64,000 nt of DNA from Patescibacteria group bacterium UBA6805 (GTDB lineage: Bacteria; Patescibacteriota; Minisyncoccia; Minisyncoccales; Minisyncoccaceae). Below the pieces are notes generated by a model that worked only from the letters and a program-made list of their open reading frames with translations, had not been told where the DNA came from and did no database searches. This document shows, in pieces, positions 23,076-61,729 of the stretch. Position 1 is the first letter of the stretch; every line of letters begins with the position of its first letter. The stretch covers positions 1-64,000 of the forward strand of contig DKFD01000011.1 of assembly GCA_002452735.1 (NCBI GenBank). The letters run 5' to 3'. The position numbers and the translations under genes are program-made.

Positions 23076-23080
23076 ATTGT

Positions 23081-34247: not shown

Positions 34248-34252
34248 TAAAT

Positions 34253-37784: not shown

Positions 37785-39176
37785 TTAGAGATCAAGCTGG
37801 GTTTTTGGTTCATTGTTTTGCTCCGTTTTTATTTCTAATTTGTCCAAGTCGATGTTTGTCGCCTCTTCTTCCAGTTTGTCGATTTTTAAATCTATTTTAA
37901 AAATCTCATTTTTAATGTTTTTGGCCCTTGAAGATACCAGTTGATATTTTTCTCTGAATTCGGCTCTTTGTTTTTCTACTTTATTCAGGGCGTCTTCGGC
38001 CTCCCACCTTTCTTCCTCGGTTGCCCTTCTTTTGTTTTCCGCCTGTCTTCTTTCTTCTTCTATTTTTCTGATTTCCGTCGGATTTTCAATAACAACACTT
38101 CCTCTTTTTTCCGTAATTTTTATTTCTTCCTCGACGGATTTTTCCTTAAGCATTATGTCGGTGAGCTTTTTTTCCAGCCGGTCTTTTTCTTTGGTGTTTT
38201 CTATCATTTTTTCCTTAATTTCAAATCCCTCCTTGCCGATATTTTCCAGTTCGACAAACAGCCCTTGCCTTTTTTCTTTTAAAAGGATTTTTTCCCTGTC
38301 CCCTCTCAGCATTTCCAGTTCCAGGTTAAGTTGTTTTTCTTTGGACAGAACTTTTTCAAAGGTTAGAACGCATTCTTTGAGCTGCGATCTCAGCGATTTG
38401 ATTTCATCTTCTTTTTTGTTTCCCTCTGCTTCAATTACGTTTCTTTCGTCTTCAATCTTCCATCTTTCTTTTTCCATTTTCCTTTTTTCTTCGGGGTCCC
38501 TGGAAGAAGATTCTTTCATCTCTATGCTTTTTTTGATTTCCTCTATCCTCTTTTTTCTTTCAGTAATGAGTTCAAGTTTTTTCTTGGACCTTTCTACCTC
38601 TCTTTCAATCTCCTGCTTTCTTTCTTCAAAAGGCATTTTTTCTTCCAGAACCTTTCTTAGATTTTCTTCTATTTCAAAAGTAAGGTCTGTAATTTTTCTC
38701 AGCTTTTCTTCGGCATTTTCCTCAACCTCTCTTTCTTTGATGTTCTCCATGGAAATTTCTTCTTCGGGTCCTTCTTTTGCCTGGGGCGCTTCTTCGGCCG
38801 GCTCTTCTTTGACAACAAGAGGCTCTGGTTCTGTGACGGGCTCTTTTTCAACAACAGGCTCTTTTTCCATGACGGGAATTTCCGGAGGAGCAGGCAGAGG
38901 AATCTCTTCTTTTTCCTCCGGAGTCCCTATTTTTTCATTTTGCAACGCCAATTCTTCCGAAGAAAAGTATCCTTCAGTTTCTTTGGGAGGGGCGGGAGGA
39001 AGGATTTCTTCTGTGGACTCTATTTCGGCGGTTTCATATTCTCCTTCAATAAGGGTTTCGTCTAAAAATTTTTCCTGGGCCTCCTCTGTTTCTCCTTGTT
39101 CTGCTTTGGCTAAATCTTTCTTCATGGTTCGTATCTTGTCGCGATTTAGCCTGAAAACATTTTTTTCCTCAACCAT
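37785..39176 (-). CDS. hypothetical Glu/Lys-rich coiled-coil protein
   Basis: 463 aa; low complexity, heptad-like E/K repeats, Pro/Glu-rich central linker. Confidence 0.4.
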   Translation of the reverse strand: MVEEKNVFRLNRDKIRTMKKDLAKAEQGETEEAQEKFLDETLIEGEYETAEIESTEEILPPAPPKETEGYFSSEELALQNEKIGTPEEKEEIPLPAPPEIPVMEKEPVVEKEPVTEPEPLVVKEEPAEEAPQAKEGPEEEISMENIKEREVEENAEEKLRKITDLTFEIEENLRKVLEEKMPFEERKQEIEREVERSKKKLELITERKKRIEEIKKSIEMKESSSRDPEEKRKMEKERWKIEDERNVIEAEGNKKEDEIKSLRSQLKECVLTFEKVLSKEKQLNLELEMLRGDREKILLKEKRQGLFVELENIGKEGFEIKEKMIENTKEKDRLEKKLTDIMLKEKSVEEEIKITEKRGSVVIENPTEIRKIEEERRQAENKRRATEEERWEAEDALNKVEKQRAEFREKYQLVSSRAKNIKNEIFKIDLKIDKLEEEATNIDLDKLEIKTEQNNEPKTQLDL

Positions 39177-39185: not shown

Positions 39186-41288
39186 TTATTTTCTTGCTTC
39201 TTTTAATGATAGATTAATTCTGCCCTGTTCGTCAATAGAGACGACTTTCACGGGAACAATATCCCCAATTTTCACCACGTCGCTTACCTTGTTTACCCTT
39301 TTTTCCGATAATTGAGAAATATGAACCAGGCCTTCCTGCCCCGGAAGCATTTCCACAAAGGCCCCGAAGTCAAGGATTCTTTTGACCTTGCCTTGGAAGG
39401 TTTCTCCCACCACGACTTCTCTGGTGATGTTGTTAATCCATTCCAGGGCTTTTTGGGCCGATTCTTCTTTTTCCGCGGTTACGAATATTTCGCCCGTTTC
39501 TTCAATGTCAATGGAAACGTTGCAAGCGTCGATTATTTCATTGATAATTTTTCCTCCCGGGCCGATGACCTCGCCGATTTTCTCGGGATTGATTTTGATA
39601 ATGAATATTCTCGGCGCATAAGAAGACAGTTGTTTCCTCGGTTCAGGGAGAACCGCCCTCATTTTTTCCAGGATTTCCAGTCTGGCTTTTTTTGATTGTT
39701 CCAGCGCCTCTTTTATTATCTTCCCCGTAATACCCCTGACCTTTACGTCCATTTGCAGGGCATTGATTCCGTCTTTTGTCCCGGCCACCTTTAAATCCAT
39801 GTCTCCGTAGTGGTCTTCCTGTCCCTGGACATCGGTAAGAATCTTGTATTTTTTTTCTTCCGTGTTTTTGTTTTTGTCCATTTCCATCATCATTCCCATG
39901 GCAATACCCGAAACAGGATTTTTAATGGGAACTCCTCCGTCCATCATGGCCAGACAAGCAGCGCAAGTTGAGGCCATCGAACTTGAACCATTTGAACACA
40001 AAACTTCGGAAACCAGCCTAATGGTATAGGGAAAGATTTGAGCATCGGGGATAACCTGCCTTAAGGCCTTTTCTGCCAGCATGCCGTGTCCGATTTCTCT
40101 TCTTCCCGGACCCCTCAGAGCGCCGATTTCTCCGACGCAGGAAGGAGGAAAGTTATAGTGGTGCATGAATCTTTTTTTCCCCTCGACTTCCATTTCTTCC
40201 ATTATTTTTTGCTCTCCCGGAGAACCCAAAGTCAGAAAAGAAAGAACCTTGGTTTGGCCTCGGCAGAATAATCCCGAGCCGTGGACTCTTTCAAAAAGTC
40301 CGGCCCGGCAGTTAATTTCCCTGATTTCGTTGAGGCCCCGGCCGTCAATTCTTAAATTGCGGTCAATGACCATCTGATGTATTGTTTTTTCTCCTTCTTG
40401 CTCCAAAAGATGAAGGCCGTGGCTTACCTTCTCCGCTTCCTCATATTTGTTTCTTAAGTGTTCTTTTAATTCTTCTCGGAAAGAATCAAAGTCTATGAGG
40501 GATTTTTCCATCTTCCCTTCGGCGAATTCTTTTATTTCCTTTTCCAGCTCCTCGTCCTCTTTTTTTTCTCCAAGTAATATTTTTTCTTTTCCCATTTTTT
40601 GGGCGATTTCTTCCCCGAAAATCAGCAGCTTTTCCTGAAGAGGCCTGGTTTTTTCAATGGCCTTGTTGATTTCTTCTTCTTGGGCTCCGTCAAATTCTCC
40701 CTCAATCATATTGACCAAAATTTCTTTTTTTGATTCTGAATAAAGAGCCGAAAAGAACAAATCAAAGCTTCCTGCCTCCCGTTCCTCTTTGGCGGGGAAG
40801 GCCACAAGTTCTCCGTTCTTTTTTCCCATTCTTAAGGGGGCAACCGGTCCGTTCCAGGGTATATCCGAGACGAGAAGAGCCAGAGAAGAGGCAAAAAGGC
40901 CTAAAACCGCCGGGTCATTTTCTTTGTCCCAGGAAATACAGGTGGCGATGATTTGAACTTCCCGCTTGAAATTATCCGGGAAAAGAGGCCTGATTGCCCT
41001 GTCAATCAGCCTGGAATTAAGAATGGCTTTTTCACTCGGCCTCGACTCTCTTTTTAAAAATCTTGAGCCCAGGATTTTGCCCACGGCGTAATATTTTTCC
41101 TCGTAAGTCACGGTTAAAGGAAAAAAATCGCTTCCCTCGATTTCTTTCTTGGCCATTACGGCCGTTGCCATTATTATCGTGTTGCCGAGCTTTATCCAAA
41201 CCGAACCATTGGCCCTTTCGGCCAGATCGTTTATCTCCACCTCCAAAGTTTTGCCGTCAACGTCTAATTTAAAGATTTCGGATTTCAT
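39186..41288 (-). CDS. pnp: polyribonucleotide nucleotidyltransferase (PNPase)
   Basis: 700 aa; two RNase PH domains, KH and C-terminal S1 domain 'GETFQGKVKRILDFGAFVEM'. Confidence 0.95.
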   Translation of the reverse strand: MKSEIFKLDVDGKTLEVEINDLAERANGSVWIKLGNTIIMATAVMAKKEIEGSDFFPLTVTYEEKYYAVGKILGSRFLKRESRPSEKAILNSRLIDRAIRPLFPDNFKREVQIIATCISWDKENDPAVLGLFASSLALLVSDIPWNGPVAPLRMGKKNGELVAFPAKEEREAGSFDLFFSALYSESKKEILVNMIEGEFDGAQEEEINKAIEKTRPLQEKLLIFGEEIAQKMGKEKILLGEKKEDEELEKEIKEFAEGKMEKSLIDFDSFREELKEHLRNKYEEAEKVSHGLHLLEQEGEKTIHQMVIDRNLRIDGRGLNEIREINCRAGLFERVHGSGLFCRGQTKVLSFLTLGSPGEQKIMEEMEVEGKKRFMHHYNFPPSCVGEIGALRGPGRREIGHGMLAEKALRQVIPDAQIFPYTIRLVSEVLCSNGSSSMASTCAACLAMMDGGVPIKNPVSGIAMGMMMEMDKNKNTEEKKYKILTDVQGQEDHYGDMDLKVAGTKDGINALQMDVKVRGITGKIIKEALEQSKKARLEILEKMRAVLPEPRKQLSSYAPRIFIIKINPEKIGEVIGPGGKIINEIIDACNVSIDIEETGEIFVTAEKEESAQKALEWINNITREVVVGETFQGKVKRILDFGAFVEMLPGQEGLVHISQLSEKRVNKVSDVVKIGDIVPVKVVSIDEQGRINLSLKEARK

Positions 41289-41551
41289 GATTTGAGTCCG
41301 ATTTTTTTAACCAGCTCTTTGTATTTTTTTTCGTTGGTTTTTTCCAAATACTTTAAAAGTTTTCTTCTTTTGGCCACCATTTTAAGCAGGCCTTTTTTGG
41401 AATGAAGGTCCTTTTTGTGCTTTTGCAAATGATTGAGAAGTTTTTCTATTTCTTCCGACAAAAGAGCGATCTGGACTTCGGCCGAGCCAGTGTCTTTTTC
41501 GTGCAATTTGAACTTGTTGATGACTTTTTCCTTTTCCGTTGTTGAAATCAT
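41285..41551 (-). CDS. rpsO: 30S ribosomal protein S15
   Basis: 88 aa; 'HEKDTGSAEVQIALLSEEI...LQKHKKDLHSKKGLL'. Confidence 0.9.
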   Translation of the reverse strand: MISTTEKEKVINKFKLHEKDTGSAEVQIALLSEEIEKLLNHLQKHKKDLHSKKGLLKMVAKRRKLLKYLEKTNEKKYKELVKKIGLKS

Positions 41552-41577
41552 ATTTTTATTATTTATCTTTTTCTTGT

Positions 41578-41650
41578 GCCCCGTGAAGGACTCGAACCTA
41601 CAACCTTGAAGTTAAGAGCTTCCTGCTCTGCCAATTGAGCTAACGGGGCT
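41578..41650 (-). tRNA. tRNA-Lys (anticodon CTT)
   Basis: manual fold: acceptor GCCCCGT/ACGGGGC, D-arm GCTC..GAGC, anticodon loop CTCTTAA, T-loop TTCGAGT; one G-A at 27-43 and one T-T in the T-stem; no encoded CCA. Confidence 0.65.
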
Positions 41651-42042
41651 TAAGGATTTTTCTGGAAGAAGTAAAGGGGCCATTCCATCTGTCCCTTGGT
41701 TATGAAAGTTACGAATTCGTAAACGATAATCCAGGCGGAATAAATCAACAATATGCCGACGACGCCGTAAGTCAATATTTTTCTTCCCTGCTCCACTTTG
41801 CCCGGGTCGCCGCCGGCCGTCATGATGGTAATTCCGCCCCAGGCGAAGAAAAGAACGGCTAAAGGAGGAACCAGGTTGAAAAGGATGAAATTAACAACAT
41901 TGTTGATTAAAACAAAAAAGTCGCTAAAGGTGCAAGAATTCTGTCCTTCTCCGCCGCAGGGAACGAGTCCTTGTCCCAGAACCGGCGTGGCGAAAAACAA
42001 AAAAAGAGCGAAGAAAAGCAGATATTGTTTGATTTTTGACAT
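41650..42042 (-). CDS. short stand-alone VirB2/TrbC-like (T4SS-type) pilin
   Basis: 130 aa; signal peptide, then '...LAVLFFAWGGITIMTAGGDPGKVEQGRKILTYGVVGILLIYSAWII', the same two-helix plus basic-loop architecture as the N-termini of the three fusion proteins; its stop codon touches the tRNA-Lys 5' end. Confidence 0.55.
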   Translation of the reverse strand: MSKIKQYLLFFALFLFFATPVLGQGLVPCGGEGQNSCTFSDFFVLINNVVNFILFNLVPPLAVLFFAWGGITIMTAGGDPGKVEQGRKILTYGVVGILLIYSAWIIVYEFVTFITKGQMEWPLYFFQKNP

Positions 42043-42084
42043 AAGCTTTTTTGAGTATAGCGGTTTTAAGTAAAAAAATCAAGG

Positions 42085-42156
42085 TGCCCCCGGCAAGATT
42101 CGAACTCGCACCACTGGTTCCGAAGACCAGTACTCTATCCATTGAGCTACGGGGGC
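42085..42156 (-). tRNA. tRNA-Arg (anticodon TCG)
   Basis: manual fold: acceptor GCCCCCG/CGGGGGC, anticodon stem CTGGT/ACCAG with loop CTTCGGA, T-loop TTCGAAT; CC but no full CCA encoded. Confidence 0.7.
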
Positions 42157-42158
42157 AT

Positions 42159-42836
42159 TTAATCTTTTTTAAAGAGCTTTTTCAGGGACTTGATTCTGAA
42201 GGGAGGAACAGTATCCTGGTCAAAGATGAGCCGGTTTTCCATCAACTCGTTTCTTTTGTCCGATTCCAAAACTTCCTTAATGGGGCTCATCCTTTTTAAG
42301 AAAATGGGAATAAGGGAAAGAAGAATGAGATAGCCGATGGGCTCAAAATTTAATCCGCCCTTGAAAGTGATGAAAATGCCGGTAACCAGAGAAAGAATGG
42401 TGCCGACCGAAGCGGTCCAGATAATGGCGAAGACAATGGTGGGAACCAATATGATGATCAGGGTGGCGGGAGAAAACACCAGCATGGCTCCCATCAGGGC
42501 GCCCAATCCCCGGCCCCCCTTGAATCCCAGAAAAAGAGACCAATTGTGACCGATGACTGACATGACGCCGCAGAAAATCTGAACGGAAACAGGCAGGCCG
42601 TATTCTTTGGCCAGAAAGACCGCCAGGAAACCTTTACCAATATCCAGGGCGGCTGTCAATATTCCCTGCCATAAACCCACGTTTTTGGCCACGTTTGAGC
42701 CCGAGCTTTTTTTCCAGCCCATTTCAAGAATGTTTTTGCCGGAAGTAACCCTGGTGATTATATAGGCGAAAGGAATGGAGCCCAGGACATAGGCCAGGGC
42801 CATAAAAGCAAGACAAACAAGATATTGGTTAATCAT
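42159..42836 (-). CDS. plsY: PlsY-family glycerol-3-phosphate acyltransferase (paralogue 1)
   Basis: 225 aa; 'AYVLGSIPFAYIITRV', 'SSGSNVAKNVG', multi-TM; the family G-S-G-N-x-G-A-T-N motif is degenerate here. Confidence 0.65.
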   Translation of the reverse strand: MINQYLVCLAFMALAYVLGSIPFAYIITRVTSGKNILEMGWKKSSGSNVAKNVGLWQGILTAALDIGKGFLAVFLAKEYGLPVSVQIFCGVMSVIGHNWSLFLGFKGGRGLGALMGAMLVFSPATLIIILVPTIVFAIIWTASVGTILSLVTGIFITFKGGLNFEPIGYLILLSLIPIFLKRMSPIKEVLESDKRNELMENRLIFDQDTVPPFRIKSLKKLFKKD

Positions 42837-43500
42837 TTAAGTATGTTTTATTTTTTATTTTTTTAATCTGTTCGGACAGGCGGTCTTTATGGGCTATTAA
42901 AATCAAAGGAGTAGCGGCCAAAGCGGGATAGAACAATAATATATTATATGTATAAAGCCAGAAAAGAGCAAATACTTCTCCGCTTAATCTTCCCGTGATT
43001 TGGTCGGAAACGGCGTATTTCAGGAATTTTTTATTCACCTTTCTCCCCATTAATACTTCAAACAGAATCATAAAACAGACAACCAGAACGAGCCAGCCGA
43101 GGAAAGCCTTCCAATCAAGATAAAGCAATATGCCCAGGAAGCTGGCCGCTCCCCGTCCTCCTTTGAGCTTAAGGAAAACGGAATAATTGTGTCCCAAGAC
43201 CGCGAAGAAAGCAGCCAGAGAAACGGCCAGGGGGCTGTTTCCGGCAGTCATGGTTTGGGCCAGATAAACGGAAAGGACTGCTTTGCCGGCATCCAAAAGA
43301 AAAACAAGAAGAAAAGACAATATTCCCGCTATTCCTCCTTTTTCTTTGCTGGCGATTCTTAAAGTATTCAGGGCTCCGATATTTTTCGAACCCGATTCCC
43401 TCGGGTCCTTTTTAAAGAGAAGTTTATTGATAATCAGGCCGAAAGGAATAGAGCCCAGGACATAGGAGATTAAAGCGATAAGAATATATTTTTCCAGCAT
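42829..43500 (-). CDS. plsY: PlsY-family glycerol-3-phosphate acyltransferase (paralogue 2)
   Basis: 223 aa; 'SYVLGSIPFGLIINKL', 'SGSKNIGALNTLR'. Confidence 0.75.
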   Translation of the reverse strand: MLEKYILIALISYVLGSIPFGLIINKLLFKKDPRESGSKNIGALNTLRIASKEKGGIAGILSFLLVFLLDAGKAVLSVYLAQTMTAGNSPLAVSLAAFFAVLGHNYSVFLKLKGGRGAASFLGILLYLDWKAFLGWLVLVVCFMILFEVLMGRKVNKKFLKYAVSDQITGRLSGEVFALFWLYTYNILLFYPALAATPLILIAHKDRLSEQIKKIKNKTYLND

Positions 43501-43518
43501 ATATTTTTATTTTTAAAA

Positions 43519-44388
43519 TTAATCTTGCAACAAGCAAACGAGTACGGTGCCCGGGCCGACATGGGCGCCGATGACGAAGCTGGTCATGTTGACGAATTCC
43601 ATTTTCGTTCCCGGGAATTTGTCTTCTATCATTTTTTCCAACCGTATCGCTTCGTTGATATTGTCGGCATGGCTTATGGCCGCGTAATATTTTCCGGGTA
43701 TTTTTTTAATCAGGGCCCCTATTTCTTTGAACAGGGCGCCGGCCGTGTCTTTGGCCTGCATTTTCAAGGTAAACGGCTTGACAACGCCGTCCTTGATGCC
43801 CAAAACCGGTCTCATGCCCAGGCCCTGCATCTTTTCCAGGACTCCGGCCACGGCGCCGCTGATTCTTCCTCCGGCCTCCAGCCATCTGGGGTCTTCAACC
43901 ATTCCGAAAAGATGAACCTTTGGAACAAGTTCTTCTAAAACCTTGAAAGCGTTTTCCGCGCTGCTTCCCCGTTCAATCAATTCCGCGGCCCTGATGGCCA
44001 AAAGTCCCTCGCCAATATCAACGTTCAGGCTGTCCAGAACGAAGATTTTCTTTTGCGCTTCTTCGTTGAGCATTTTTTTAGCCTGCATGGCGGAGTTGTA
44101 GGTTCCGGATATTTTTGAACTGACGGTGATGCAAATGATATCTTGGTTTTGGGACAGAAGCTCGTCATAGGCTTTTTTATAAACTCCGATTGCCGGCTGG
44201 GACGTTTTGGGGGTGGTTTTCAGTCCTTGTCTCTGGGCATTTCTCATTTTTTCATAGATGTTTTCTCCCGAGATGGCGTTTTCGCCGCTCCAGTCAATTA
44301 TAAAAGGAACCGTTTTTATTCCATATTTTTGGATTATTTCCTGAGGCAGCGGTGCGCTTTCCCCGGCAATTATTGTTGTGTTTTTCAT
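43519..44388 (-). CDS. DegV-family fatty-acid-binding protein (FakB-like)
   Basis: 289 aa; DegV fold hallmarks 'CITVSSKISGTYNSA', 'FVLDSLNVDIGEGL'. Confidence 0.8.
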   Translation of the reverse strand: MKNTTIIAGESAPLPQEIIQKYGIKTVPFIIDWSGENAISGENIYEKMRNAQRQGLKTTPKTSQPAIGVYKKAYDELLSQNQDIICITVSSKISGTYNSAMQAKKMLNEEAQKKIFVLDSLNVDIGEGLLAIRAAELIERGSSAENAFKVLEELVPKVHLFGMVEDPRWLEAGGRISGAVAGVLEKMQGLGMRPVLGIKDGVVKPFTLKMQAKDTAGALFKEIGALIKKIPGKYYAAISHADNINEAIRLEKMIEDKFPGTKMEFVNMTSFVIGAHVGPGTVLVCLLQD

Positions 44389-44403
44389 ATATAAAAATTA
44401 TTA

Positions 44404-45264
44404 TTAATGCCAGCCGAGAACCAAAGTTCCCGGGCCGAGATGTCCGCCCAGAGGAATGCAGACAGGGCTTAAAAAGGCCGTGTCCACGTTTATCCCCGAA
44501 AGCAACGCCTTCAGTTTATTGGCTTGTTCTTCGTTGTTGGCGTGGGTGATGCTGGCCGTTATTTTTTTGCCGGACTCCCTGACTTTTCTCGTGCTTTTTT
44601 CAAACTCTTCAAACAGGGCCTGGGACAGGTTTTTAATATTCATTTTTATCCCGACAATGGTCAGTTTTCCGTCTTTGAATCCAAATATGGGTTTGAGGTG
44701 CATTCTTTCCGCGCCCCTCTGAACAAAGCGGGGTATCCGTCCGCTGGCTTCAAGCCATTTGCCATCCTGATAAGCGCCCAGCAGCTTGAAGTTCTTTAAG
44801 TCGGCGTTTAATCTGTCCACTATTTCCTGCGCGTTCAATCCTTGTTTTATGTGCTTTATGGCCTCAAGGACGATAAGGCCTTCTCCTGCGCTGCCGTTAA
44901 GCGTATCCAAAACATGAACCCGGCTTCTCATTTCCGCACTTAAGAATTTCTGGGCCTGGGTGGCCGAATTATACGTTCCGGAAATCTTGGAAGAGATGGT
45001 AAAGCACAATAATTCTTTAAAGTGTTTCAGTTTTTCCTCGAAAACCCTGGCGAAATCGTTTATTGAGGGCTGGGAGGTTTTGACAAAACCGATTATCCCC
45101 TGTTTATCCGACTGCACCATTTTTTCATAAATGGTTCCCGGGAATTGCGCCAATTGCTGCAAGTCGATTTTGAACCGGACAAGGGAAATGTCGTTTTCTT
45201 TTATTATTTCTTCGGGCACATCGACTGCTTCGTCAGCGACAATGCCTATTTGTTTTTCTTCCAT
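44404..45264 (-). CDS. DegV-family fatty-acid-binding protein (FakB-like, second copy)
   Basis: 286 aa; 'CFTISSKISGTYNSA', 'HVLDTLNGSAGEGL'. Confidence 0.8.
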   Translation of the reverse strand: MEEKQIGIVADEAVDVPEEIIKENDISLVRFKIDLQQLAQFPGTIYEKMVQSDKQGIIGFVKTSQPSINDFARVFEEKLKHFKELLCFTISSKISGTYNSATQAQKFLSAEMRSRVHVLDTLNGSAGEGLIVLEAIKHIKQGLNAQEIVDRLNADLKNFKLLGAYQDGKWLEASGRIPRFVQRGAERMHLKPIFGFKDGKLTIVGIKMNIKNLSQALFEEFEKSTRKVRESGKKITASITHANNEEQANKLKALLSGINVDTAFLSPVCIPLGGHLGPGTLVLGWH

Positions 45265-45268
45265 TTTT

Positions 45269-47056
45269 TTATTTCACTATCCAGCCCGCAATCAAGCTTT
45301 CTGGGCAAGCATTGATGCTGGTCACCGGATCGGTGATGGTTACAAAAGAGATATCCGCTCTTTTGAATTTTTTAAGGCTGCTCTTGAGCTGTTCGGCCTG
45401 CTCCGGGTTGTCGCCGTGAGCGATAACAGCTCTGATTCTTTTTCCTCTTTTAATGTCTTTACTGGTGTGGCGGTCTATTTTTTTAAAGAGAATGTCGGCG
45501 AAATCCCTGGTCTTCACTTTTCCTCCGGGCGTCATTTTTCCGTCCTTCATCTGGGTTAAAAGAAACTCCTGGTTGTCTTTTTTTCTGAACCAGCGGCCGC
45601 TGAAAGAGTCTTTTTTCCACCAGCGGACGTTTTCCAAAACAGCGTAAACGTTGACCGTAGGCACGATGTTTTCCAGTCTTGATTTTATCTCCCCGAAGTC
45701 CCGGTGCTCTTTTATCAGTTCAATCGCTTCCAGGATTAACAGTGATTGTCCGGCGCTGATGTTTTTGGAATCAATCACCAAAACCTTCTCCCGTTCTTCC
45801 GGCAGCAGTAAGCCCTTTGCCTTAAGGGCGGAGCGGTAATTGTCCGAAAGCTTTGAGCTGGAAACGATGCATAAAACATGCTCGAAATCCCTTAATTGAT
45901 TTTTGTAGGCCTCAAGGAAAAAGTCGGGAGCAATCGATTCTATTTTTGGCTTTTGGGTCAGTCCCTGCTTCTTGGCTTCTTTGATTTTTTCGCAAATCGT
46001 GTTGCCGGCCAGGCTTTCCCCTCCGGGCCAACTGATTTTGAAGGGAACAACCTCAATGTTATAGTGATTGATTATTTTTGAAGTCAGGCCGGCTCTTTCA
46101 TCAACAACCAGGCCGATGGACACGCTCTCAATGGATTTTTCTCCAACAACCTCTCTGGCCATGTCTTGAATCTTAAGGTTTTCAATGTCCCCCAATTCTT
46201 TTACCGAGTCCCTTACTTCGTAAGGACTGTCAGTGTGAATGTGTATTTTGGTCCTGTCCCCTATCTGAATAATATCCAGACAGTCGCCCAAGTGTTTGAG
46301 CCTGTCTTTGATTTTTTTATCGGTCTCTTCAACGTTTTTTATCAAGGCCACCACCTCATAGCGGTTGGAGATTATTTGAATGAATCTTCTGGGCCTTGTT
46401 TTTTCTCTTTCCGAAGCGAATTCTTTGGGCGAAGAAAGGTCCCCCTGTTCTTTTAAAATGTCCAGATATGTTTCCAATATCATCAAAAAACCGAGGCCGC
46501 CCGCATCGACTACCCCGGCCTTTTTCAATAATTCCATTTTATTCGGGGTTTCTTTCAACGCTTCGTCGGCTTTTTCCAGGGATTTATAGAAGATTTTTAC
46601 AATGTCTTTTTCATTCTTTGATTCTTCCTCAAAAGTCAGGGCAAAGGCCTCAATAACATCCAAAATTGTTCCCTCCCTGGGATTCTGGATGGAATCTTTC
46701 GCTCTTTCCATGCCTTTGTTGAAAGCCGTGGCCATCTCTTCGGCGTTAACGGATTTTTCTTTGCCCAAAGCGGGGAAAAAACCGGCCAAGAAACCGGTAT
46801 AAATAATGCCGGCATTGCCCTGGGCGCCGGTCAAAGCTCCCTCCAAAACGCTGTTGGACAATTCTTCAATGGAGGAGAAATCTTTTTCTTCTATCTGTTC
46901 TTTAATGCCTTTGAGCGTGGCACTTAAGTTGTTGCCCGTGTCCTGGTCGGGCACGGGAAAAACGTTAATTTTGTTTATTTGTTCTTTGTCTCTCTCTATC
47001 CTTTCACAGGAAAAGAGTATCATTTTTTTCAGTTCGTTTTGGGTTACTTCTTGCAT
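45269..47056 (-). CDS. fakA: fatty acid kinase FakA-like (Dak2/DhaL N-domain + DegV-like C-domain)
   Basis: 595 aa; Dak2 motif 'PDQDTGNNLSATLKG', C-terminal DegV-like 'CIVSSSKLSDNYRSA'. Confidence 0.7.
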   Translation of the reverse strand: MQEVTQNELKKMILFSCERIERDKEQINKINVFPVPDQDTGNNLSATLKGIKEQIEEKDFSSIEELSNSVLEGALTGAQGNAGIIYTGFLAGFFPALGKEKSVNAEEMATAFNKGMERAKDSIQNPREGTILDVIEAFALTFEEESKNEKDIVKIFYKSLEKADEALKETPNKMELLKKAGVVDAGGLGFLMILETYLDILKEQGDLSSPKEFASEREKTRPRRFIQIISNRYEVVALIKNVEETDKKIKDRLKHLGDCLDIIQIGDRTKIHIHTDSPYEVRDSVKELGDIENLKIQDMAREVVGEKSIESVSIGLVVDERAGLTSKIINHYNIEVVPFKISWPGGESLAGNTICEKIKEAKKQGLTQKPKIESIAPDFFLEAYKNQLRDFEHVLCIVSSSKLSDNYRSALKAKGLLLPEEREKVLVIDSKNISAGQSLLILEAIELIKEHRDFGEIKSRLENIVPTVNVYAVLENVRWWKKDSFSGRWFRKKDNQEFLLTQMKDGKMTPGGKVKTRDFADILFKKIDRHTSKDIKRGKRIRAVIAHGDNPEQAEQLKSSLKKFKRADISFVTITDPVTSINACPESLIAGWIVK

Positions 47057-47096
47057 AAAGAAAAAAGAAATACGGGATATTTCTTTAATAACGTGT

Positions 47097-47747
47097 TTAT
47101 TTTATCTTTTTCTCCAAGCCGTCAAGGATTTTTTTGGCAAAATCTTTTCCTCCCAGACCGAAAGCCAGGCCAAAGACCAAGACAATGAAGGTCACGAATC
47201 CGATGAATATGGTCAAAATCAAATCAGGCACTATTTTTAACTGGTAAAGAATGGCCAGGCCGGCCAGAATCCAGGCCACTGAAGAAATAATGTCGCCCAA
47301 GATGCTCGAATATGCTATTTTCTCGTTTTCCAGACTGACCACCAGTATTTTTTTGGAAAAATCGGCTAAAAATACGGCAAAAATGAAGATGATTATGGCG
47401 ACAAAAATGTTGGGGAAATAATCAATGATTTTTTGGATAAAAGCGTTAAACTGCTCCAGTCCTATAATATCGAAAGAAATGGTCAGGAAAAGAAGCAGGA
47501 AGAATATGTTGACCAATTCGCTAAAGAATCCGGAAACGTTGATTTGGGCGTTGCGACGGGTGAAAAATTCTTCCCAACCCAATGATTTCAGCATCTGGTT
47601 CAGGCGGAATTTTTTTAAAAATTCATCTGCATATTCCTTAATTTTGTTTGCGACAAATACCCCGATAAAGAAAACTAAAAAAGCCCAAATCAGATTTGGC
47701 AGGTTAAGGATTACGTTTTCCATAAACACATTTAATATGTCCTGCAT
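47097..47747 (-). CDS. hypothetical polytopic membrane protein
   Basis: 216 aa; 4-5 TM helices, no catalytic motifs recognised. Confidence 0.35.
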   Translation of the reverse strand: MQDILNVFMENVILNLPNLIWAFLVFFIGVFVANKIKEYADEFLKKFRLNQMLKSLGWEEFFTRRNAQINVSGFFSELVNIFFLLLFLTISFDIIGLEQFNAFIQKIIDYFPNIFVAIIIFIFAVFLADFSKKILVVSLENEKIAYSSILGDIISSVAWILAGLAILYQLKIVPDLILTIFIGFVTFIVLVFGLAFGLGGKDFAKKILDGLEKKIK

Positions 47748-47782
47748 AATTTTATGCGTTATTCTTACGGATTCATTCTACC

Positions 47783-48343
47783 CTACCATTTGGCATTGTG
47801 CAAGCCCAAATTATACCCAATTCGGTTGAATAAAATATGAGTAAAAAATGTCAAGACAAAAAGCCAAAACCAGAACTTAATTTCAAGATGAAACAAGGGC
47901 TGAAGAATTATAAAGCTGCCTATCACATAGTTTGTCTGGTCAAAAGGAATGAATTTTGCACCGGACTTGAGTTTTAGTCGTCTTTTAATAAAAGCAAAGG
48001 ACAAATCACCAAAAACAATGCCAATTGATAGTAAAAATCCCAATATAAAGCCGTTTATTTGGTTATATGCATAAAAACCAATAGTTTCATAGTGCGTAAG
48101 GCCGAGAAAATTATGTACCCAGATGAATGCAGGCATTAACGAGGTGCAGACAATGATTTCAGAAATAACGCCTCGCCAGGTTTTATGGTCTCCAAGCACG
48201 GGATCGTTGTTCAATTTCGCTCCCCCGTCAACCGGACCTGCCAGTCCTTTAAGTATTTTTATTTTGTACGCCAAAGGTGGCGAAGCATTGGCAAAGTATG
48301 CCGGTCCAAAGAAAAACATGCAGGATAATAGATAATAAAACAT
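47783..48343 (-). CDS. CarS-like (DUF46) CDP-alcohol/CDP-archaeol synthase-family CTP-transferase
   Basis: 186 aa; 'GPVDGGAKLNNDPVLGDHKTWRG' matches the P-x-D-x-G...G-x-x-KTW-R-G signature of the CarS/DUF46 family; multi-TM. Confidence 0.5.
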   Translation of the reverse strand: MFYYLLSCMFFFGPAYFANASPPLAYKIKILKGLAGPVDGGAKLNNDPVLGDHKTWRGVISEIIVCTSLMPAFIWVHNFLGLTHYETIGFYAYNQINGFILGFLLSIGIVFGDLSFAFIKRRLKLKSGAKFIPFDQTNYVIGSFIILQPLFHLEIKFWFWLFVLTFFTHILFNRIGYNLGLHNAKW

Positions 48344-48347
48344 TGTT

Positions 48348-48947
48348 TTATTTTATTATTCTGGACTCAGTGCCCTGCCGCAGCCTTTTGATATTTTCTC
48401 TGTGCGTCCACCATATTAATAATATATAGACAAAAGCAAGAACAACATAAGCAGAAGATTTTGTTTCTATCCAGAACAATATGGGCAGAAACAAGGCAAT
48501 GATTAAATTGGTTAAACTCATTATTTTTATAACAAACAAGGAAAGAGCCCAAATAGTTAGGAATATCAAAGAGTAATTTAGTCCTAAAATCATGAAAATC
48601 GTGGCAGCCACGGTAGCCACGCCTTTTCCTCCCTTAAACTTGAGCCAAATCGGGAATATATGGCCAAGCACGGGAGAAATGGATACCAAGGCCATTTGCC
48701 AGTCCTGGGTTAGATAGTGGCCAGCCACATATATTGGTATAATGGCTTTAAGTATATCAAGAACACTGACCAGAGTCCCGTATTTGAAGCCAAGGGTTCT
48801 GCCAACGTTTGTTCCGCCAATATTGCCACTCCCCTGTTTTCTGATGTCGATTTTTTTAAGCTTGGCAATCAAATAGCCAAAAGGTATTGAGCCTGATAAA
48901 TATCCTATAATAACGAAGAAGATTAATAAAATTGTTTGATTTTCCAT
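48348..48947 (-). CDS. plsY: PlsY-family glycerol-3-phosphate acyltransferase (paralogue 3, most canonical)
   Basis: 199 aa; 'GYLSGSIPFGYLIAKL', 'GSGNIGGTNVGR'. Confidence 0.8.
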   Translation of the reverse strand: MENQTILLIFFVIIGYLSGSIPFGYLIAKLKKIDIRKQGSGNIGGTNVGRTLGFKYGTLVSVLDILKAIIPIYVAGHYLTQDWQMALVSISPVLGHIFPIWLKFKGGKGVATVAATIFMILGLNYSLIFLTIWALSLFVIKIMSLTNLIIALFLPILFWIETKSSAYVVLAFVYILLIWWTHRENIKRLRQGTESRIIK

Positions 48948-48971
48948 GTTTTTATGATTATTCTTATACTG

Positions 48972-49042
48972 TGGGCTTGATGAGAGTCGAACTCATATTG
49001 CTACTGTGTGAAAGTAGTATTCTGCCGCTGAATTACAAGCCC
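48972..49042 (-). tRNA. tRNA-Val (anticodon CAC)
   Basis: manual fold: acceptor GGGCTTG/CAAGCCC, D-stem ATTC/GAAT, anticodon stem CTACT/AGTAG with loop TTCACAC, T-stem ATGAG/CTCAT; no CCA. Confidence 0.7.
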
Positions 49043-49047
49043 AGGGT

Positions 49048-49061
49048 GTTTCACGTGAAAC
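49048..49061. promoter_or_regulatory. 14-bp perfect palindrome GTTTCACGTGAAAC 5 nt upstream of the tRNA-Val 5' end (copy 1)
   Basis: identical element with identical flanks (CCCAGG..TGTTTCACGTGAAACTTT) precedes tRNA-Ala at 49302-49315. Confidence 0.4.
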
Positions 49062-49146
49062 TTTTGTCGGGATGCTGGGAATTGAACCCAGATGACAGAC
49101 TCCCGAAGCCTGCATAATGCCGTTATATTACATCCCGAAATTATTT

Positions 49147-49222
49147 GGCCGGATTCGTGTCCGGATTCGTGTCCGCATTGGCCGGATTCGTGTCCGCATT
49201 CGGATTCCGGCCAATGCGGACA
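49147..49222. repeat. GC-rich composite repeat: three direct GGATTCGTGTCCG(CATT) units plus inverted repeat GTCCGCATTGGCCGG/CCGGCCAATGCGGAC in the tRNA-Ala/tRNA-Val spacer
   Basis: seen in sequence; strongly GC-shifted relative to its surroundings; can form a 15-bp stem. Confidence 0.6.
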
Positions 49223-49226
49223 TTTG

Positions 49227-49297
49227 TGGACCTGACGAGAATCGAACTCATATCTCTACTATGCGAAAGTAGTGTTCTGCCATTAAACTACAGGCCC
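49227..49297 (-). tRNA. tRNA-Ala (anticodon CGC)
   Basis: manual fold: acceptor GGGCCTG/CAGGTCC with G3:U70 alanine identity pair, anticodon stem CTACT/AGTAG with loop TTCGCAT, T-loop TTCGATT; no CCA. Confidence 0.7.
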
Positions 49298-49301
49298 AGG
49301 T

Positions 49302-49315
49302 GTTTCACGTGAAAC
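49302..49315. promoter_or_regulatory. 14-bp perfect palindrome GTTTCACGTGAAAC upstream of tRNA-Ala (copy 2)
   Basis: see copy 1; it lies between the cca stop (49317) and the tRNA. Confidence 0.4.
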
Positions 49316-49316
49316 T

Positions 49317-50807
49317 TTACGTAACCCAATACCTTTCTTTTGTCATTTGGTCTTGTTTTACCTCAATCTTGTCAATTTCCTTTTTTGCTTTATGGGTTAA
49401 TTTAATTAATTCCTCGTTGTTTAGTCTGCTTAATTCCAGCAGCTTTTCAGTCAAATACTTTTTCGTATTGTTCTTCGGGTCTTTTAGCACTTCTTCAAGC
49501 AGGATGTCAAGAAATTGGCCGATTTTGGGCCCAGGCTCTGTTTTCAGTATCTGCATAATGTCATTACCGTTGATTTTAAGCATTTTGACCGAAATCGGGT
49601 CCTTGGAAACCTTTTCAATCATGTATTTAAGGTGTCTAAGCTTGTATGGTTCTGCTTTTGGGCAGCCTGATCCAATTCTGTCTGCCATTCTCAATTGCAG
49701 CAAATCTTCCATGTTTTCAGTGCCGGCTTTTCTAATCAGCCTCCTAACAGAAGATTCTCCCACTTCATCAACATTATAGTAAAATAAATGGTATCTTACC
49801 AGGTTTACTATTTTATCAACGTCTTTTTTAGGGAATTTCAAGCGATTAAGCATTTTTTCAGCCATTTTTGCCCCAACTATTTCATGATTGTAAAAAGTGG
49901 CGTTTTCGCCTGCTCCTTTCTTGGTTGTTGGTTTTCCGACGTCATGAAGCAAGGCAGCCATTTTTATGTGGAAATTAAGGTCTTTTTTAGCCGTATAATT
50001 CAGGCATTCCAAATTGTGCTTGTAGCAATCATATATGTGGTGTTTGTTTTGTTTTACGCCGAATCCTTTTTCCAGTTCAGGCATAATATGGTTTAAAAGT
50101 CCTGTTTTCCTCAAAGTTTCAATGCCTTGAGCCGCGTTTTCGCTCATGATTATCTTTGTTAATTCATCCCTGATTCTTTCTTTTGACGATTTTTCCAACA
50201 AATGACTGTATTTGATTATGGCTTTTTCAGTATTTTCCTCTATTTTCCAGCCCTTTCCCAAAGTATTCTCAAAACGGACAGCCCTCATCATTCTAAGAAA
50301 GTCCTCTGAAAATCTTTCTTCTGGTTTTCCAACCGTTCTGATAATCCTGTTTTTAATGTCTGCCAGGCCGTTAAACAAATCGATTATCTCAAACTTGTCC
50401 TTGCTTATTGGACTGATGGCAATGGCATTAATGGTAAAATCCCTTCTCTTCAAGTCCTCCTCAATATGCTTGGACCAGACAACTTTGTCCGGGTGGCGAT
50501 AGTCGGAATAGGTTGATTCTGAGCGGTAAGTAGTTATCTCCACTATATTATTTTTGGGAAAAACGACGCCCACGGTGCCAAAGTCGTTTTCATAGAAGGT
50601 TTTAACGTTTTGTTCTTTGAAAACAGCCTGGGTTTGTTCGGGCCTGGCATCGGTGGCAATGTCCCAATCAGAGGGTTCTTTTCCCATGAACAAATCTCTG
50701 GTGCAGCCGCCGACAATGTAGGCCTCGAATCCTTTTTCCTTGATTTTTTTCAGGGCGAAAAGAGCGTATTTCGGGATGACGAATTTCAGCTTTTTTGTTT
50801 GTTTCAT
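49317..50807 (-). CDS. cca: CCA-adding tRNA nucleotidyltransferase with HD domain
   Basis: 496 aa; polymerase-beta-type head 'GGCTRDLFMG...DWDIAT', HD motif 'LLHDVGK'. Confidence 0.85.
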   Translation of the reverse strand: MKQTKKLKFVIPKYALFALKKIKEKGFEAYIVGGCTRDLFMGKEPSDWDIATDARPEQTQAVFKEQNVKTFYENDFGTVGVVFPKNNIVEITTYRSESTYSDYRHPDKVVWSKHIEEDLKRRDFTINAIAISPISKDKFEIIDLFNGLADIKNRIIRTVGKPEERFSEDFLRMMRAVRFENTLGKGWKIEENTEKAIIKYSHLLEKSSKERIRDELTKIIMSENAAQGIETLRKTGLLNHIMPELEKGFGVKQNKHHIYDCYKHNLECLNYTAKKDLNFHIKMAALLHDVGKPTTKKGAGENATFYNHEIVGAKMAEKMLNRLKFPKKDVDKIVNLVRYHLFYYNVDEVGESSVRRLIRKAGTENMEDLLQLRMADRIGSGCPKAEPYKLRHLKYMIEKVSKDPISVKMLKINGNDIMQILKTEPGPKIGQFLDILLEEVLKDPKNNTKKYLTEKLLELSRLNNEELIKLTHKAKKEIDKIEVKQDQMTKERYWVT

Positions 50808-50943
50808 TTTCTCCTGTATTTTATCTTAAAATCGCTCTCTTGACAACTCCTCTTATTGGGAATAGAATGAAAACACAAAGGTATGATTTCAAAAATGTCG
50901 GATTGATTCCGACTTTTTTATAACAATTTTAATAAAAAAATTT

Positions 50944-52161
50944 ATGGACATGCAAGGATTTTTATCAGCCATCAGCCAGTTGGCAGAGGAAAAAGGTCTT
51001 TCCCGGGAAAAGGTTTTTGAAACCGTGGAGCACGCGCTGGCTTCGGCCTACAAAAAAGAATACGGCAAAAGGGGACAGATTATCAAGGCAAAAATAAATC
51101 CCAAAACAGGGGAGACGGATTTTTGGAGGGAGAAAATAGTGGTTGACGACGCCACGGTCTACATTCCCGAAAATACGGAAAATGAAGAGGAGGAAGAGCT
51201 AGAAATCAAGCAAAGCTATCGTCCCATGGAAGACGAGCTGAATGTGGAAGAGGGCGTCGAAGAAGAAGGGGCGAGAAGGATTAAATACAATCCGGAAAGG
51301 CATGTTTTAATCGAGGAAATCAAGAAGACCAATCCCGAATTGGAGCCCGGACAGGAATTGATAATCCCCTTGGAGCAGAAAGAGGGATTCGGCAGGATTG
51401 CCGCTCAGACCGCCAAGCAGGTTGTTCTGCAGAAAATCAGGGAGGCGGAAAAAGAAACGATTCTGGCGGAATACAAATCAAAAGAAGGGGAGATTGTTTC
51501 AGGAATCGTTCAGAGAATCGAAGGCGTAAACGTTTATTTTGATATTGGCAAGAGTTTGGGAATATTGCCCAAGGAAGAACAAATCAGGGGCGAGTTTTAC
51601 AAGGAAGGACAGAGGCTGAAGCTCTATGTTTTAAAGGTTGATACCACGCCCAAGGGTCCGATTATCATTCTTTCCCGGGCTTATCCCAAATTAATATCCA
51701 AGCTTTTTGAATTGGAGGTTCCGGAAATCGGCTCTGGCCAGATAGAAATCAAATCAATTGCCAGAGAGCCGGGCTCAAGAACCAAAATAGCCGCTGTTTC
51801 TTTGGCCGAGGGCGTTGACCCTATCGGAGCCATGGTGGGGCAGAGGGGAGTGAGGGTGGCGGCGGTGATTTCCGAGTTGGGCGGTGAAAAAATCGATGTT
51901 ATTGAATATTCTGACGACCCGGTAAAATACATTACCAATTCATTGTCTCCAGCCAGAGTGATAGAAGTCAAGATAATGCCCAAGAATACAGCCCTGGTTA
52001 TTGTTCCGTCCGACCAATTGTCTTTGGCAATCGGCAAAGAAGGGCAGAATGTAAGATTGTCAGCCAAGCTGACCGGCTGGAAAATAGACGTTAAGAGCGA
52101 CGAACAGATAAAAGAAGATGACGAAGAGCTGAATATTGAGGAAGAAGATGATAAAGAATAA
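50944..52161 (+). CDS. nusA: transcription termination/antitermination factor NusA
   Basis: 405 aa; NusA N-domain, S1 and two KH domains; acidic insertion and acidic C-terminal tail. Confidence 0.9.
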   Translation: MDMQGFLSAISQLAEEKGLSREKVFETVEHALASAYKKEYGKRGQIIKAKINPKTGETDFWREKIVVDDATVYIPENTENEEEEELEIKQSYRPMEDELNVEEGVEEEGARRIKYNPERHVLIEEIKKTNPELEPGQELIIPLEQKEGFGRIAAQTAKQVVLQKIREAEKETILAEYKSKEGEIVSGIVQRIEGVNVYFDIGKSLGILPKEEQIRGEFYKEGQRLKLYVLKVDTTPKGPIIILSRAYPKLISKLFELEVPEIGSGQIEIKSIAREPGSRTKIAAVSLAEGVDPIGAMVGQRGVRVAAVISELGGEKIDVIEYSDDPVKYITNSLSPARVIEVKIMPKNTALVIVPSDQLSLAIGKEGQNVRLSAKLTGWKIDVKSDEQIKEDDEELNIEEEDDKE

Positions 52162-60991: not shown

Positions 60992-61729
60992 ATGGTGGGA
61001 AAAGAGGATTTGCATGAAAAGGCAGTAGCTTTAAGAAACAGAGGTTTTACATATGGCGAAATACTGGAAAAGATTAATTTCAAAGTCAGCAACAGCACTA
61101 TCTCTTGCTGGTGTTCTGGAATAGAGCTTACGCCGTCCCAGAAAGACAGAATTAAAGAGAAGCAAAGAAATTTTAAGCTTATCAAGCACCTAATAAGCAA
61201 GTCCATTAAGGATGAAGAAGGGGCAAGGGCTTGGGCGAAGGAAAAAGCTGAGTTAATCGCGAGTAATAATCTTAAAAATTTGATACTATCCGGAACAATG
61301 CTTTATTGGGCAGAAGGGTATGGTTCAACAGGAAAAAGTGCCGGATTCACAAACACAGACCCCCAAATGATAAAGATAATGATGAAGTTTTTCAGGGAGG
61401 TGTTGGGAGTAGAGGATAGAAAAATCAAAATAATGGTAAGAATTGATAAAAGAAACGATATTGGAAGAGCTGTAAATTATTGGTCAAAAATTGTTAAATT
61501 GCCATTATCCAATTTTCATAAAACGGAAATTTTAGAAACTAAAAACAATAAATATCCGAATGGCATATGCAGGATTACGGTTTATGATGTTTCTGTAAGA
61601 AGAAAGATTGACAATCTTCTTAAATTAATAAAAGATAAGTGGGCCCCTGTAGCTCAGAGGATAGAGCAGCACACTCCTAAGGTGAAGGCCGTAGGTTCGA
61701 TTCCTACCGGGGGCACAATTAAAATATGA
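60992..61729 (+). CDS. hypothetical protein with N-terminal HTH-like segment and a LAGLIDADG-like 'LYWAEGYGS' motif; the reading frame runs through the downstream tRNA
   Basis: 245-aa ORF; its last roughly 29 codons are the translation of the tRNA-Arg(CCT) gene, so the true 3' end is uncertain. Confidence 0.3.
   Translation: MVGKEDLHEKAVALRNRGFTYGEILEKINFKVSNSTISCWCSGIELTPSQKDRIKEKQRNFKLIKHLISKSIKDEEGARAWAKEKAELIASNNLKNLILSGTMLYWAEGYGSTGKSAGFTNTDPQMIKIMMKFFREVLGVEDRKIKIMVRIDKRNDIGRAVNYWSKIVKLPLSNFHKTEILETKNNKYPNGICRITVYDVSVRRKIDNLLKLIKDKWAPVAQRIEQHTPKVKAVGSIPTGGTIKI
61643..61715 (+). tRNA. tRNA-Arg (anticodon CCT) with a weakened anticodon stem
   Basis: acceptor GCCCCTG/CGGGGGC, canonical D-arm GTAGCTCAGAGGATAGAGCA and T-arm GTAGGTTCGATTCCTAC, loop CTCCTAA; the stem GCACA/GGTGA has only 3 Watson-Crick pairs; no CCA. 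Confidence 0.55.

Follow-up and report, generated by a model that had tools for sequence, protein, structure and literature searches.

The closest described counterpart of the locus analyzed here is the fatty acid kinase (Fak) pathway of Firmicutes such as Staphylococcus aureus and Streptococcus, in which the kinase FakA and the fatty-acid-binding proteins FakB1 and FakB2 supply acyl-phosphate to the acyltransferase PlsY, alongside PlsX and PlsC. A locus of this kind occupies positions 42159-48947 of a 64,000-nucleotide stretch from an ultrasmall parasitic bacterium, Patescibacteria group bacterium UBA6805 (contig DKFD01000011.1, positions 1 to 64,000), the whole of which is referred to below as the window. 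All of its components are members of known families, and it follows the same logic as the Firmicute Fak-PlsY pathway: a kinase in which a Dak2 domain and a middle domain precede a DegV-like C-terminal domain; FakB proteins encoded separately and bearing a T/S/R/H tetrad of fatty-acid-binding residues; a predicted acyl-phosphate product; and PlsY as its putative consumer. Several features differ from those of the Firmicute systems. All parts lie in one operon together with the acyltransferases, three PlsY-family genes are present, two of them belonging to conserved families with a changed acceptor pocket, and the island lacks plsX and plsC. The kinase lacks the zinc-finger Cys and carries as its C-terminal domain a full-length DegV domain that is still matched by PF02645, the cytidylyltransferase encoded in the same operon is of the CarS type and not the CdsA type, and the proteins score below the NCBIfam equivalog cut-offs for FakA and FakB1. 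Furthermore, a widespread fusion in sister lineages joins one of the PlsY-family proteins, FakA, and FakB in a single polypeptide.

Probst et al. (2020) found PlsY and PlsC, and neither PlsX nor an acyl carrier protein (ACP), in Nealsonbacteria and queried the source of the acyl-phosphate; they also reported that lysolipids are enriched in cells of the candidate phyla radiation (CPR). According to a 2024 review, no lipid uptake mechanism has been identified in Patescibacteria, and the description of Minisyncoccus archaeiphilus states that fatty-acid acquisition "remains unclear." In the searchable literature, no account of such a system (DegV, FakB, or fatty acid kinase) was found for Patescibacteria or Parcubacteria, the sole match being a study of heliorhodopsin neighborhoods.

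Eight open reading frames (ORFs) were called on the minus strand at 42159-48947, with intergenic gaps of -8 to 40 bp, and all eight products exceeded the Pfam gathering thresholds. An initial annotation of the window had listed eight genes at these coordinates and had identified them as encoding one FakA-type kinase, two FakB/DegV proteins, three PlsY-family proteins, a CarS-like protein, and a membrane protein; ORF calling and Pfam searches confirmed the genes and coordinates, and the identities were right. The gene order given there contained the right genes but followed the plus strand, whereas transcription runs in the opposite direction, from PlsY-C through the CarS-like protein, an Msc-like membrane protein, the FakA-type kinase, DegV1, DegV2, and PlsY-like B to PlsY-like A (B and A are short for the last two below). 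The operon and its boundaries, in the order of transcription, are as follows.

48971..49042, minus strand: tRNA-Val(CAC), the upstream operon boundary (ARAGORN, Rfam).
48348..48947, minus strand: PlsY-C, a canonical PlsY of 199 amino acids (aa) and the first gene of the operon (PF02660, TIGR00023).
47783..48343, minus strand: CarS-like CTP-dependent lipid cytidylyltransferase, 186 aa (PF01864), with a putative role as cytidine diphosphate (CDP)-diacylglycerol synthase.
47097..47747, minus strand: multipass membrane protein, 216 aa, with two MscS-type "conserved TM helix" repeats (PF05552, 49.3 bits).
45269..47056, minus strand: FakA-type fatty acid kinase, 595 aa, consisting of Dak2, FakA-like_M, and DegV domains (Pfam).
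44404..45264, minus strand: DegV1, a FakB-type fatty-acid-binding protein, 286 aa (PF02645, 151 bits; TIGR00762, 169.7 bits).
43519..44388, minus strand: DegV2, a FakB-type fatty-acid-binding protein, 289 aa (PF02645, 184 bits; TIGR00762, 207.2 bits).
42829..43500, minus strand: PlsY-like B, a divergent paralog, 223 aa (PF02660, 118.4 bits).
42159..42836, minus strand: PlsY-like A, a divergent paralog, 225 aa, with an 8-bp overlap with B (PF02660, 106.5 bits).
42083..42156, minus strand: tRNA-Arg(TCG), the downstream boundary (ARAGORN, Rfam).

Scanning 41500-49400 for promoters and terminators produced no signal stronger than that of shuffled controls, and an Rfam scan returned tRNAs only.

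Judged by its genes and their conserved residues, the operon very probably activates exogenous fatty acids to acyl-phosphate for phospholipid synthesis in an ACP-independent manner. Each of the two free FakB proteins would take up a fatty acid, and the FakA-type kinase would dock FakB through its degenerate DegV domain and phosphorylate the carboxylate with ATP. PlsY-C would then acylate glycerol-3-phosphate (G3P) to lysophosphatidate, and the CarS-like enzyme would later turn phosphatidate into a CDP-activated lipid for head-group attachment. The route from kinase to acyl-phosphate to lysophosphatidate had been proposed in the initial annotation, and at the level of sequence it holds, the FakB tetrad, the FakA Mg/ATP motif, and a canonical PlsY all being present.

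Residues 2-302 of the kinase align to Streptococcus suis FakA (7W7H) and to the N-terminal domain of S. aureus FakA, and the C-terminal 280 residues align to FakB/DegV chains only. The Mg/ATP motif NVFPVPDxDTG and the HxH motif are retained in the window kinase (NVFPVPDQDTGN); the N, D, and D residues (N32, D38, and D40 of S. aureus FakA) and HxH were invariant in all 48 Paceibacteria FakA homologs. The functional roles of the Mg/ATP, His, and Cys residues of FakA, including the importance of the Cys in S. aureus and S. suis, have been reported previously (PMC9136124, PMC10848957). The FakA middle domain, PF21645, was present at 53.7 bits, and the FakA equivalog models matched with their N-terminal halves only, at 158 bits for NF038248 (cut-off, 975) and 262 bits for TIGR03599 (cut-off, 396). 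In the dihydroxyacetone kinase DhaK/DhaL, an EDD-fold domain that carries the substrate likewise accompanies a nucleotide domain of the Dak2 (DhaL) type; the window system differs from it in its partners, which are DegV fatty-acid binders, and in its FakA middle domain, and the DhaL models matched only weakly, at 30-39 bits.

The FakB residues T62, S95, R173, and H270, numbered according to S. aureus FakB1, were mapped onto the three DegV domains. Both free DegV proteins carry the complete tetrad and score above the TIGR00762 cut-off of 99.7 bits. T62, S95, and R173 were found in all 38 members of the DegV1 family and all 42 of the DegV2 family, with H270 in 37 of 38 and 38 of 42, respectively; DegV2 also matched the S. 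aureus FakB1 structures over its full length at ~90 bits and contains the motifs TSQP, SSKISGTY, GGRIS, and GAHVGPG. The DegV domain of the kinase, which scored 108 bits, reads I-E-S-x-N as opposed to T-S-S-R-H and lacks T62, R173, and H270. FakA_C likewise lacks the fatty-acid-binding residues of FakB (PMC9136124), and the residue pattern suggests that the kinase DegV domain is likely a FakB-docking domain without fatty-acid binding. From this mapping, the window appears to encode a FakA with a nonbinding FakB relic, together with two functional-looking FakB proteins. A self-sufficient FakA-FakB fusion was ruled out by the three missing residues, and the Dak2-DegV "fusion" listed in the initial annotation is not unusual: it is built like a normal FakA, its C-terminal domain being less reduced and devoid of the fatty-acid-binding residues. 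In kinase-fused DegV domains, T62, R173, and H270 were retained only in the triple-fusion lineages described below and a few others.

The three PlsY proteins share 28-34% pairwise identity and differ in their relation to the characterized family. PlsY-C scored 171.9 bits against PF02660 (cut-off, 24.1) and 178.8 bits against the equivalog model TIGR00023 (cut-off, 137.2), is 41% identical to Aquifex aeolicus PlsY (aaPlsY; 5XJ5), and retains S35, N37, T41, R45, H92, K104, H177, and N180, so that all functional residues of that enzyme are present. B and A passed PF02660 and fell below the TIGR00023 cut-off (96.0 and 100.9 bits, respectively); by these scores, PlsY-C is a member of the PlsY family, and A and B are relatives of the family only. 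The fold was checked with a model for A and by sequence for B and C. B matched 5XJ5 at an E value of 5.8e-11, and the AlphaFold 2 model of A (predicted local distance difference test score, 84; predicted template modeling score, 0.81), which shows the seven-helix fold of aaPlsY (5XJ5-5XJ9), matched PlsY structures only (5XJ5-5XJ8; template modeling score, 0.69-0.79; probability, 1.0). In a neighbor-joining phylogeny, the three copies formed separate deep clades, each monophyletic in 50 of 50 bootstraps, with the Aquifex enzyme clustering with PlsY-C.

The acyl-phosphate site of aaPlsY is formed by motif 2 and His92: the donor is held by His92 and the backbone of residues 104-107, and Thr41 binds its carbonyl. 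G3P is bound by motifs 1 and 3, with S35, R45, K104, and N180 clamping the phosphate and S142 and H177 binding the 2-OH (Li et al., PMC5700162). According to the same study, acyl-chain selectivity resides in the hydrophobic groove and not in the G3P clamp, and the K104R and T41A mutants retain 25% and 4.75% of activity, respectively. Asn37 is a proposed oxyanion stabilizer. Alignment of 31 C, 37 B, and 58 A sequences with aaPlsY showed that H92 is retained in 28, 37, and 57 of them, respectively, and that G102 and G103 of the glycine-rich phosphate-hole loop (G102-G103-K104-G105) are invariant in all three families; residue 104 is Arg in every A and B sequence. The positions of the G3P clamp and the 2-OH binder are all retained in C, whereas B reads S35, R45, R104, R180, and H177 and A reads W35, K45, R104, P180, and R177. 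The B signature across its 37 sequences is S35, K36, N37, L41, R45, H92, R104, H177, R180, and Q184, and that of the 58 A sequences is W35, K/R36, K37, S39, S41, K45 (mostly), H92, R104, R177, and P180. Relative to aaPlsY, the changes are S35W, N37K, G39S, T41S, R45K, K104R, H177R, and N180P in A, which also has a conserved cytosolic tail of 35 residues (ENRLxFDQDxxPPxRxK), and G36K, T41L, K104R, N180R, R183E/D, and L184Q in B, which also has an insertion after motif 1.

These motifs, described as degenerate in the initial annotation, are in fact alternative motifs that are invariant across the 58 A and 37 B sequences, and its question of a changed substrate fits the residue pattern, in which the changes fall in the G3P motifs 1 and 3 and the acyl-phosphate site is spared. 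Decaying pseudogenes or unrelated membrane proteins were ruled out, since the ORFs are intact, pass PF02660, and have invariant residues of their own, and A has the PlsY fold. Judged from these alignments, A and B are real PlsY-fold proteins under strong constraint, with a conserved donor site and a remodeled acceptor site; because they depart from the G3P clamp and 2-OH-binding residues, they were not filed as G3P acyltransferases. The number of copies, which had been considered unusual, has a precedent in Lactobacillus johnsonii N6.2, a fatty-acid auxotroph and Fak-reliant scavenger with more than one PlsY and several FakB proteins (PMC11625735). In that organism, however, the copies carry ordinary PlsY annotations and the genome also encodes PlsX, ACP, and PlsC, whereas the window has two acceptor-remodeled copies in deep clades.

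Further PlsY types were seen in other Paceibacteria loci (designated L with a number). A near-canonical variant with Leu for His177 and the signature SKSTTRHIKLNR was found at L058:9364-9963 and in L059, L075, and L076, and a fourth PlsY type with the signature SKNGMRHCKQHP adjoins FakA at L045:5467-6102 and in L046, L049, L077, L050, and L079. In a search of 1.84 billion representatives, many PlsY-like proteins carried R104/R177 in place of K104/H177; these constitute a large uncharacterized radiation in metagenomes, and the rules derived from aaPlsY may be looser than assumed.

A and B would also be acyl-phosphate-dependent acyltransferases, A being the one tied most closely to the kinase. 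Their remodeled pocket would take a phosphorylated acceptor embedded in the membrane, which could be lysophosphatidate (at sn-2) or a lysophospholipid obtained by scavenging, and both acylations could then run on acyl-phosphate. That A and B transfer acyl groups to a different, lipid acceptor is a proposal that the residue patterns leave just short of an even chance. The proposal agrees with the conservation of the donor site, with the changes in the G3P clamp, with the position of Trp35 of A at the interface, and with the reported enrichment of lysolipids in CPR cells. For the island as a whole, a scavenged-fatty-acid operon with lipid-acceptor A and B is the best explanation, and a reasonably probable one.

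Species-representative genomes were scanned with a family-A profile, giving 76 loci in which ORFs were called and classified against the eight window proteins. The full eight-gene order was present in 24 of the 76 genomes, with A identity down to 49%, and 12 further loci contained truncated parts of it; since the same order recurs in 24 genomes, the arrangement is not due to chance. At nine loci, A lay a few kilobases downstream of PlsC genes, and four loci comprised the CarS-like, Msc-like, and FakA genes and the fourth PlsY type, with A ~4 kb beyond. The full cluster was found in the cultured archaeal parasites "Candidatus Microsyncoccus archaeolyticus" (L007) and M. archaeiphilus (L048, complete genome), as well as on a 656-kb contig in which A was 62% identical. 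PlsY-like A had hundreds of homologs, all from Paceibacteria, Parcubacteria, Minisyncoccales, or Nealsonbacteria, and the family is small and sharply bounded, with only 20 representatives of 50%-identity clusters at E values of ≤1e-30 in a set of 1.84 billion proteins.

Paceibacteria have a conserved slot bounded by the CCA-adding enzyme gene and nusA (49317-52161 and 39186-42042 in the window; also L082 to L085). On its other side lie rpsO, pnp, and a gene for a T4SS pilin (T4SS, type IV secretion system), and it contains either the eight-gene operon or a compact version consisting of DegV and the triple fusion. A lipid block that also ends at nusA was seen at L058:1543-10651, with similar blocks in L039, L043, L044, L059, L063, L075, and L076. 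Its order is a FabA-like/FabK-like (NMO) fusion, a second FabK-like gene, two PlsC genes (PF01553), biotin carboxylase, biotin carboxyl carrier protein, a biotin ligase-like gene, carboxyltransferase, the PlsY-C variant, and PlsY-like A. In such loci, PlsC is thus accompanied by FabA-FabK-like genes and by subunits of acetyl-coenzyme A carboxylase. No ACP or ketosynthase was seen within L058:1543-10651, and the block looks like a partial set for fatty-acid synthesis or elongation.

In 10 of the 76 genomes, A was the N-terminal domain of an ~860-aa polypeptide that continues into Dak2, FakA_M, and DegV (for example, L034:10010-12592; such ORFs also occurred in L035, L047, L053 to L056, L061, L065, L072, and L082 to L085). 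A database search recovered the same four-domain PlsY-A-Dak2-FakA_M-DegV architecture in at least 118 protein clusters (118 of the best 120, with identities of 53-91%), and these were annotated only as "glycerol-3-phosphate acyltransferase" or "hypothetical." The DegV domain of the triple fusions retains the full T-S-S-R-H set, and the fused gene lies in the same slot as the window operon, between the CCA-adding enzyme gene and nusA and near the genes for S15 and polynucleotide phosphorylase (PNPase). A free DegV gene often precedes it, and in one case it is preceded by CDP-alcohol phosphatidyltransferase and CarS-like genes. B was never seen fused. No PlsY-FakA-FakB fusion was described in the literature searched. 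Taken as a Rosetta stone, this natural fusion is the strongest evidence that A uses Fak-made acyl-phosphate.

The CarS-like protein scored 90.9 bits against PF01864 (cut-off, 22) and 108.8 bits against the CarS equivalog NF003114 (cut-off, 148). Its alignment with Aeropyrum pernix CarS (5GUF) was weak but co-linear (E value, 1.2e-4; 186 versus 182 residues), and the two proteins have in common their size and the C-terminal GDxxxSFxKRR...DQ region of CarS, within the CTP-transferase superfamily that also includes CdsA. The window protein differs from 5GUF in being bacterial, in lying in an acyl-lipid operon, and at the second acidic residue, where it reads DQTN and not DQLD. In L082, the CarS-like ortholog adjoins a CDP-alcohol phosphatidyltransferase gene, a neighborhood that supports the CarS-like protein as a putative maker of a CDP-activated lipid. 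From this neighbor and from the PlsY/Fak operon context, its substrate is presumably phosphatidate and not archaetidic acid. The Msc-like gene lies between the CarS-like gene and FakA in almost every locus with both, and it was absent in L062 and L082.

Several findings weigh against the proposal of lipid-acceptor A and B in a Fak operon. M. archaeiphilus, which has the same cluster, carries plsC (MNSC_05960) inside a partial fab cluster; its type II fatty acid synthesis (FASII) pathway is incomplete, with PlsC and a few fab-like genes present. Since nine other loci likewise have a PlsC gene close to A, replacement of PlsC by A or B is not required, and the idea of an obligatory replacement is weakened. 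No second PlsY gene was found within 8 to 10 kb of the triple fusions, so that these loci may have no PlsY other than A, which would then be a G3P acyltransferase. The "canonical-like" PlsY beside A in L058, L059, L075, and L076 has Leu at His177, and the residue rules of aaPlsY may therefore not apply strictly in this phylum; T41L in B resembles the strongly impaired T41A mutant. On the kinase side, the zinc-finger or catalytic Cys (C240 in S. aureus and C244 in S. suis) is gone in all 48 FakA sequences, the loss being a two-residue deletion that gives RY--EVV versus GYCTE in the window kinase and its 47 homologs. For the lineage of the window itself, a Paceibacteria PlsC query gave no match on its contigs among the 120 matches listed, and a Pfam search of the 57 window ORFs, a set that excludes smaller ORFs such as acpP and comes from ~1/10 of the genome, yielded none of fab, plsX, plsC, acpP, cdsA, and pgsA, a negative that carries little weight.

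The observations on PlsC and on the triple-fusion loci also favor a reading in which A and B are ordinary G3P acyltransferase isozymes tuned by acyl chain or FakB, all three PlsY copies making lysophosphatidate, with a PlsC encoded elsewhere performing the second acylation with acyl-coenzyme A (acyl-CoA) or acyl-ACP. The scavenger L. johnsonii has several plsY, plsC, and fakB copies for which chain-specific roles have been proposed (PMC11625735), three DegV domains accompany the three PlsY genes in the window, and basic residues could still clamp phosphate in A (K36, K37, K45, and R104) and B (R45, R104, and R180). However, the invariant changes hit the clamp and 2-OH binder (S35W, H177R, and N180P in A; N180R and T41L in B) and not the chain groove, equivalent aaPlsY mutants lose >90% of activity, and it would not be parsimonious for genomes of ~0.65 Mb to keep three enzymes with redundant roles over such deep divergence. 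We therefore regard isozymes as unlikely, although this reading deserves serious weight.

A noncatalytic role for A, and perhaps for B, is improbable. A would in that case be a membrane anchor or a module binding acyl-phosphate or fatty acid that passes fatty acids from the bilayer to FakB or acyl-phosphate to PlsY-C; fusion to FakA-FakB would tether the kinase at the membrane, where, as is established for Fak systems (PMC10146087), FakB must exchange fatty acids, and A retains the acyl-phosphate site while losing acceptor-site residues. The constraint on A is nevertheless excessive for a passive anchor, with an invariant Lys at Asn37, invariant W35, K37, S39, S41, and R177 lining the pocket, and a conserved tail, and B was fused in no case seen.

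Handling of host archaeal lipids, with the CarS-like enzyme activating archaetidic acid from methanogen hosts and the odd PlsY proteins acting on glycerol-1-phosphate (G1P)-type or ether lysolipids, is hardly credible even though close relatives with the same cluster parasitize methanogens (L007 and L048) and the cytidylyltransferase is of the archaeal CarS type and not CdsA, because the cluster and family A also occur in groundwater and soil Paceibacteria of unknown host, the ligands of DegV/FakB proteins are fatty acids, not isoprenoids, "Ca. Nealsonbacteria" grew on Escherichia coli lysate, which the authors interpreted as excluding a need for archaeal lipids (bioRxiv 10.1101/2022.04.20.488981), ordinary PlsY accepts G1P as well as G3P (PMC13400652), and the CPR lipids measured to date are acylglycerols (Probst et al., 2020), the last three points having also led us to judge archaeal-lipid salvage an unlikely explanation of why the CarS-like gene is present.

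The rest of the window contains typical Patescibacteria genes, including those for T4SS-type pilins, a VirB4/TraG-like ATPase, dnaA and dnaN, nusA, PNPase, and ClpP. A scattered T4SS-like set at 21294-24141, 32922-35467, and 41650-42042 comprises a VirB4/TraG-type ATPase (619 aa), a PrgI-like protein, and three T4SS_pilin proteins, two of them of 404-441 aa. At 16722-20114, the minus strand carries dnaN and dnaA, after which ~670 bp without genes (19446-20114) separate them from yidC, and near 16-18 kb the cumulative GC skew passes through a local minimum; the dnaN/dnaA region with its gene-free stretch is a probable replication origin. A 1,468-aa protein encoded at 54191-58597 combines a Fib_succ_major domain with 10 or more Kelch repeats and is a predicted surface protein, unusually large for so small a genome. 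The 245-aa ORF at 60992-61729 has no Pfam match, and its 3' end overlaps tRNA-Arg(CCT) at 61643-61716 on the same strand; it is either shorter than listed or not a gene. Four large ORFs, at 27126-29159 (677 aa), 29531-32902 (1,123 aa), 37785-39176 (463 aa), and 8083-9171 (362 aa), had no Pfam match at an E value of ≤0.001.

The furthest extension of the lipid-acceptor proposal is that Paceibacteria make phosphatidate wholly from acyl-phosphate, with no ACP or CoA thioester, that A and/or B would be the first acyl-phosphate-dependent lysophosphatidate or lysophospholipid acyltransferases, and that in many lineages the intermediate would be channeled within the fusion; this we put forward only tentatively, as something that might well prove wrong. 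The remodeled PlsY families and the natural fusion provide material for asking whether the PlsY fold uses acceptors beyond G3P. Experiments are possible in M. archaeiphilus, which carries the same cluster and can be grown only in coculture with its archaeal host. The conserved Fak-PlsY operon thus offers a concrete, testable answer, at least for Paceibacteria, to the question of how membrane lipids are sourced.

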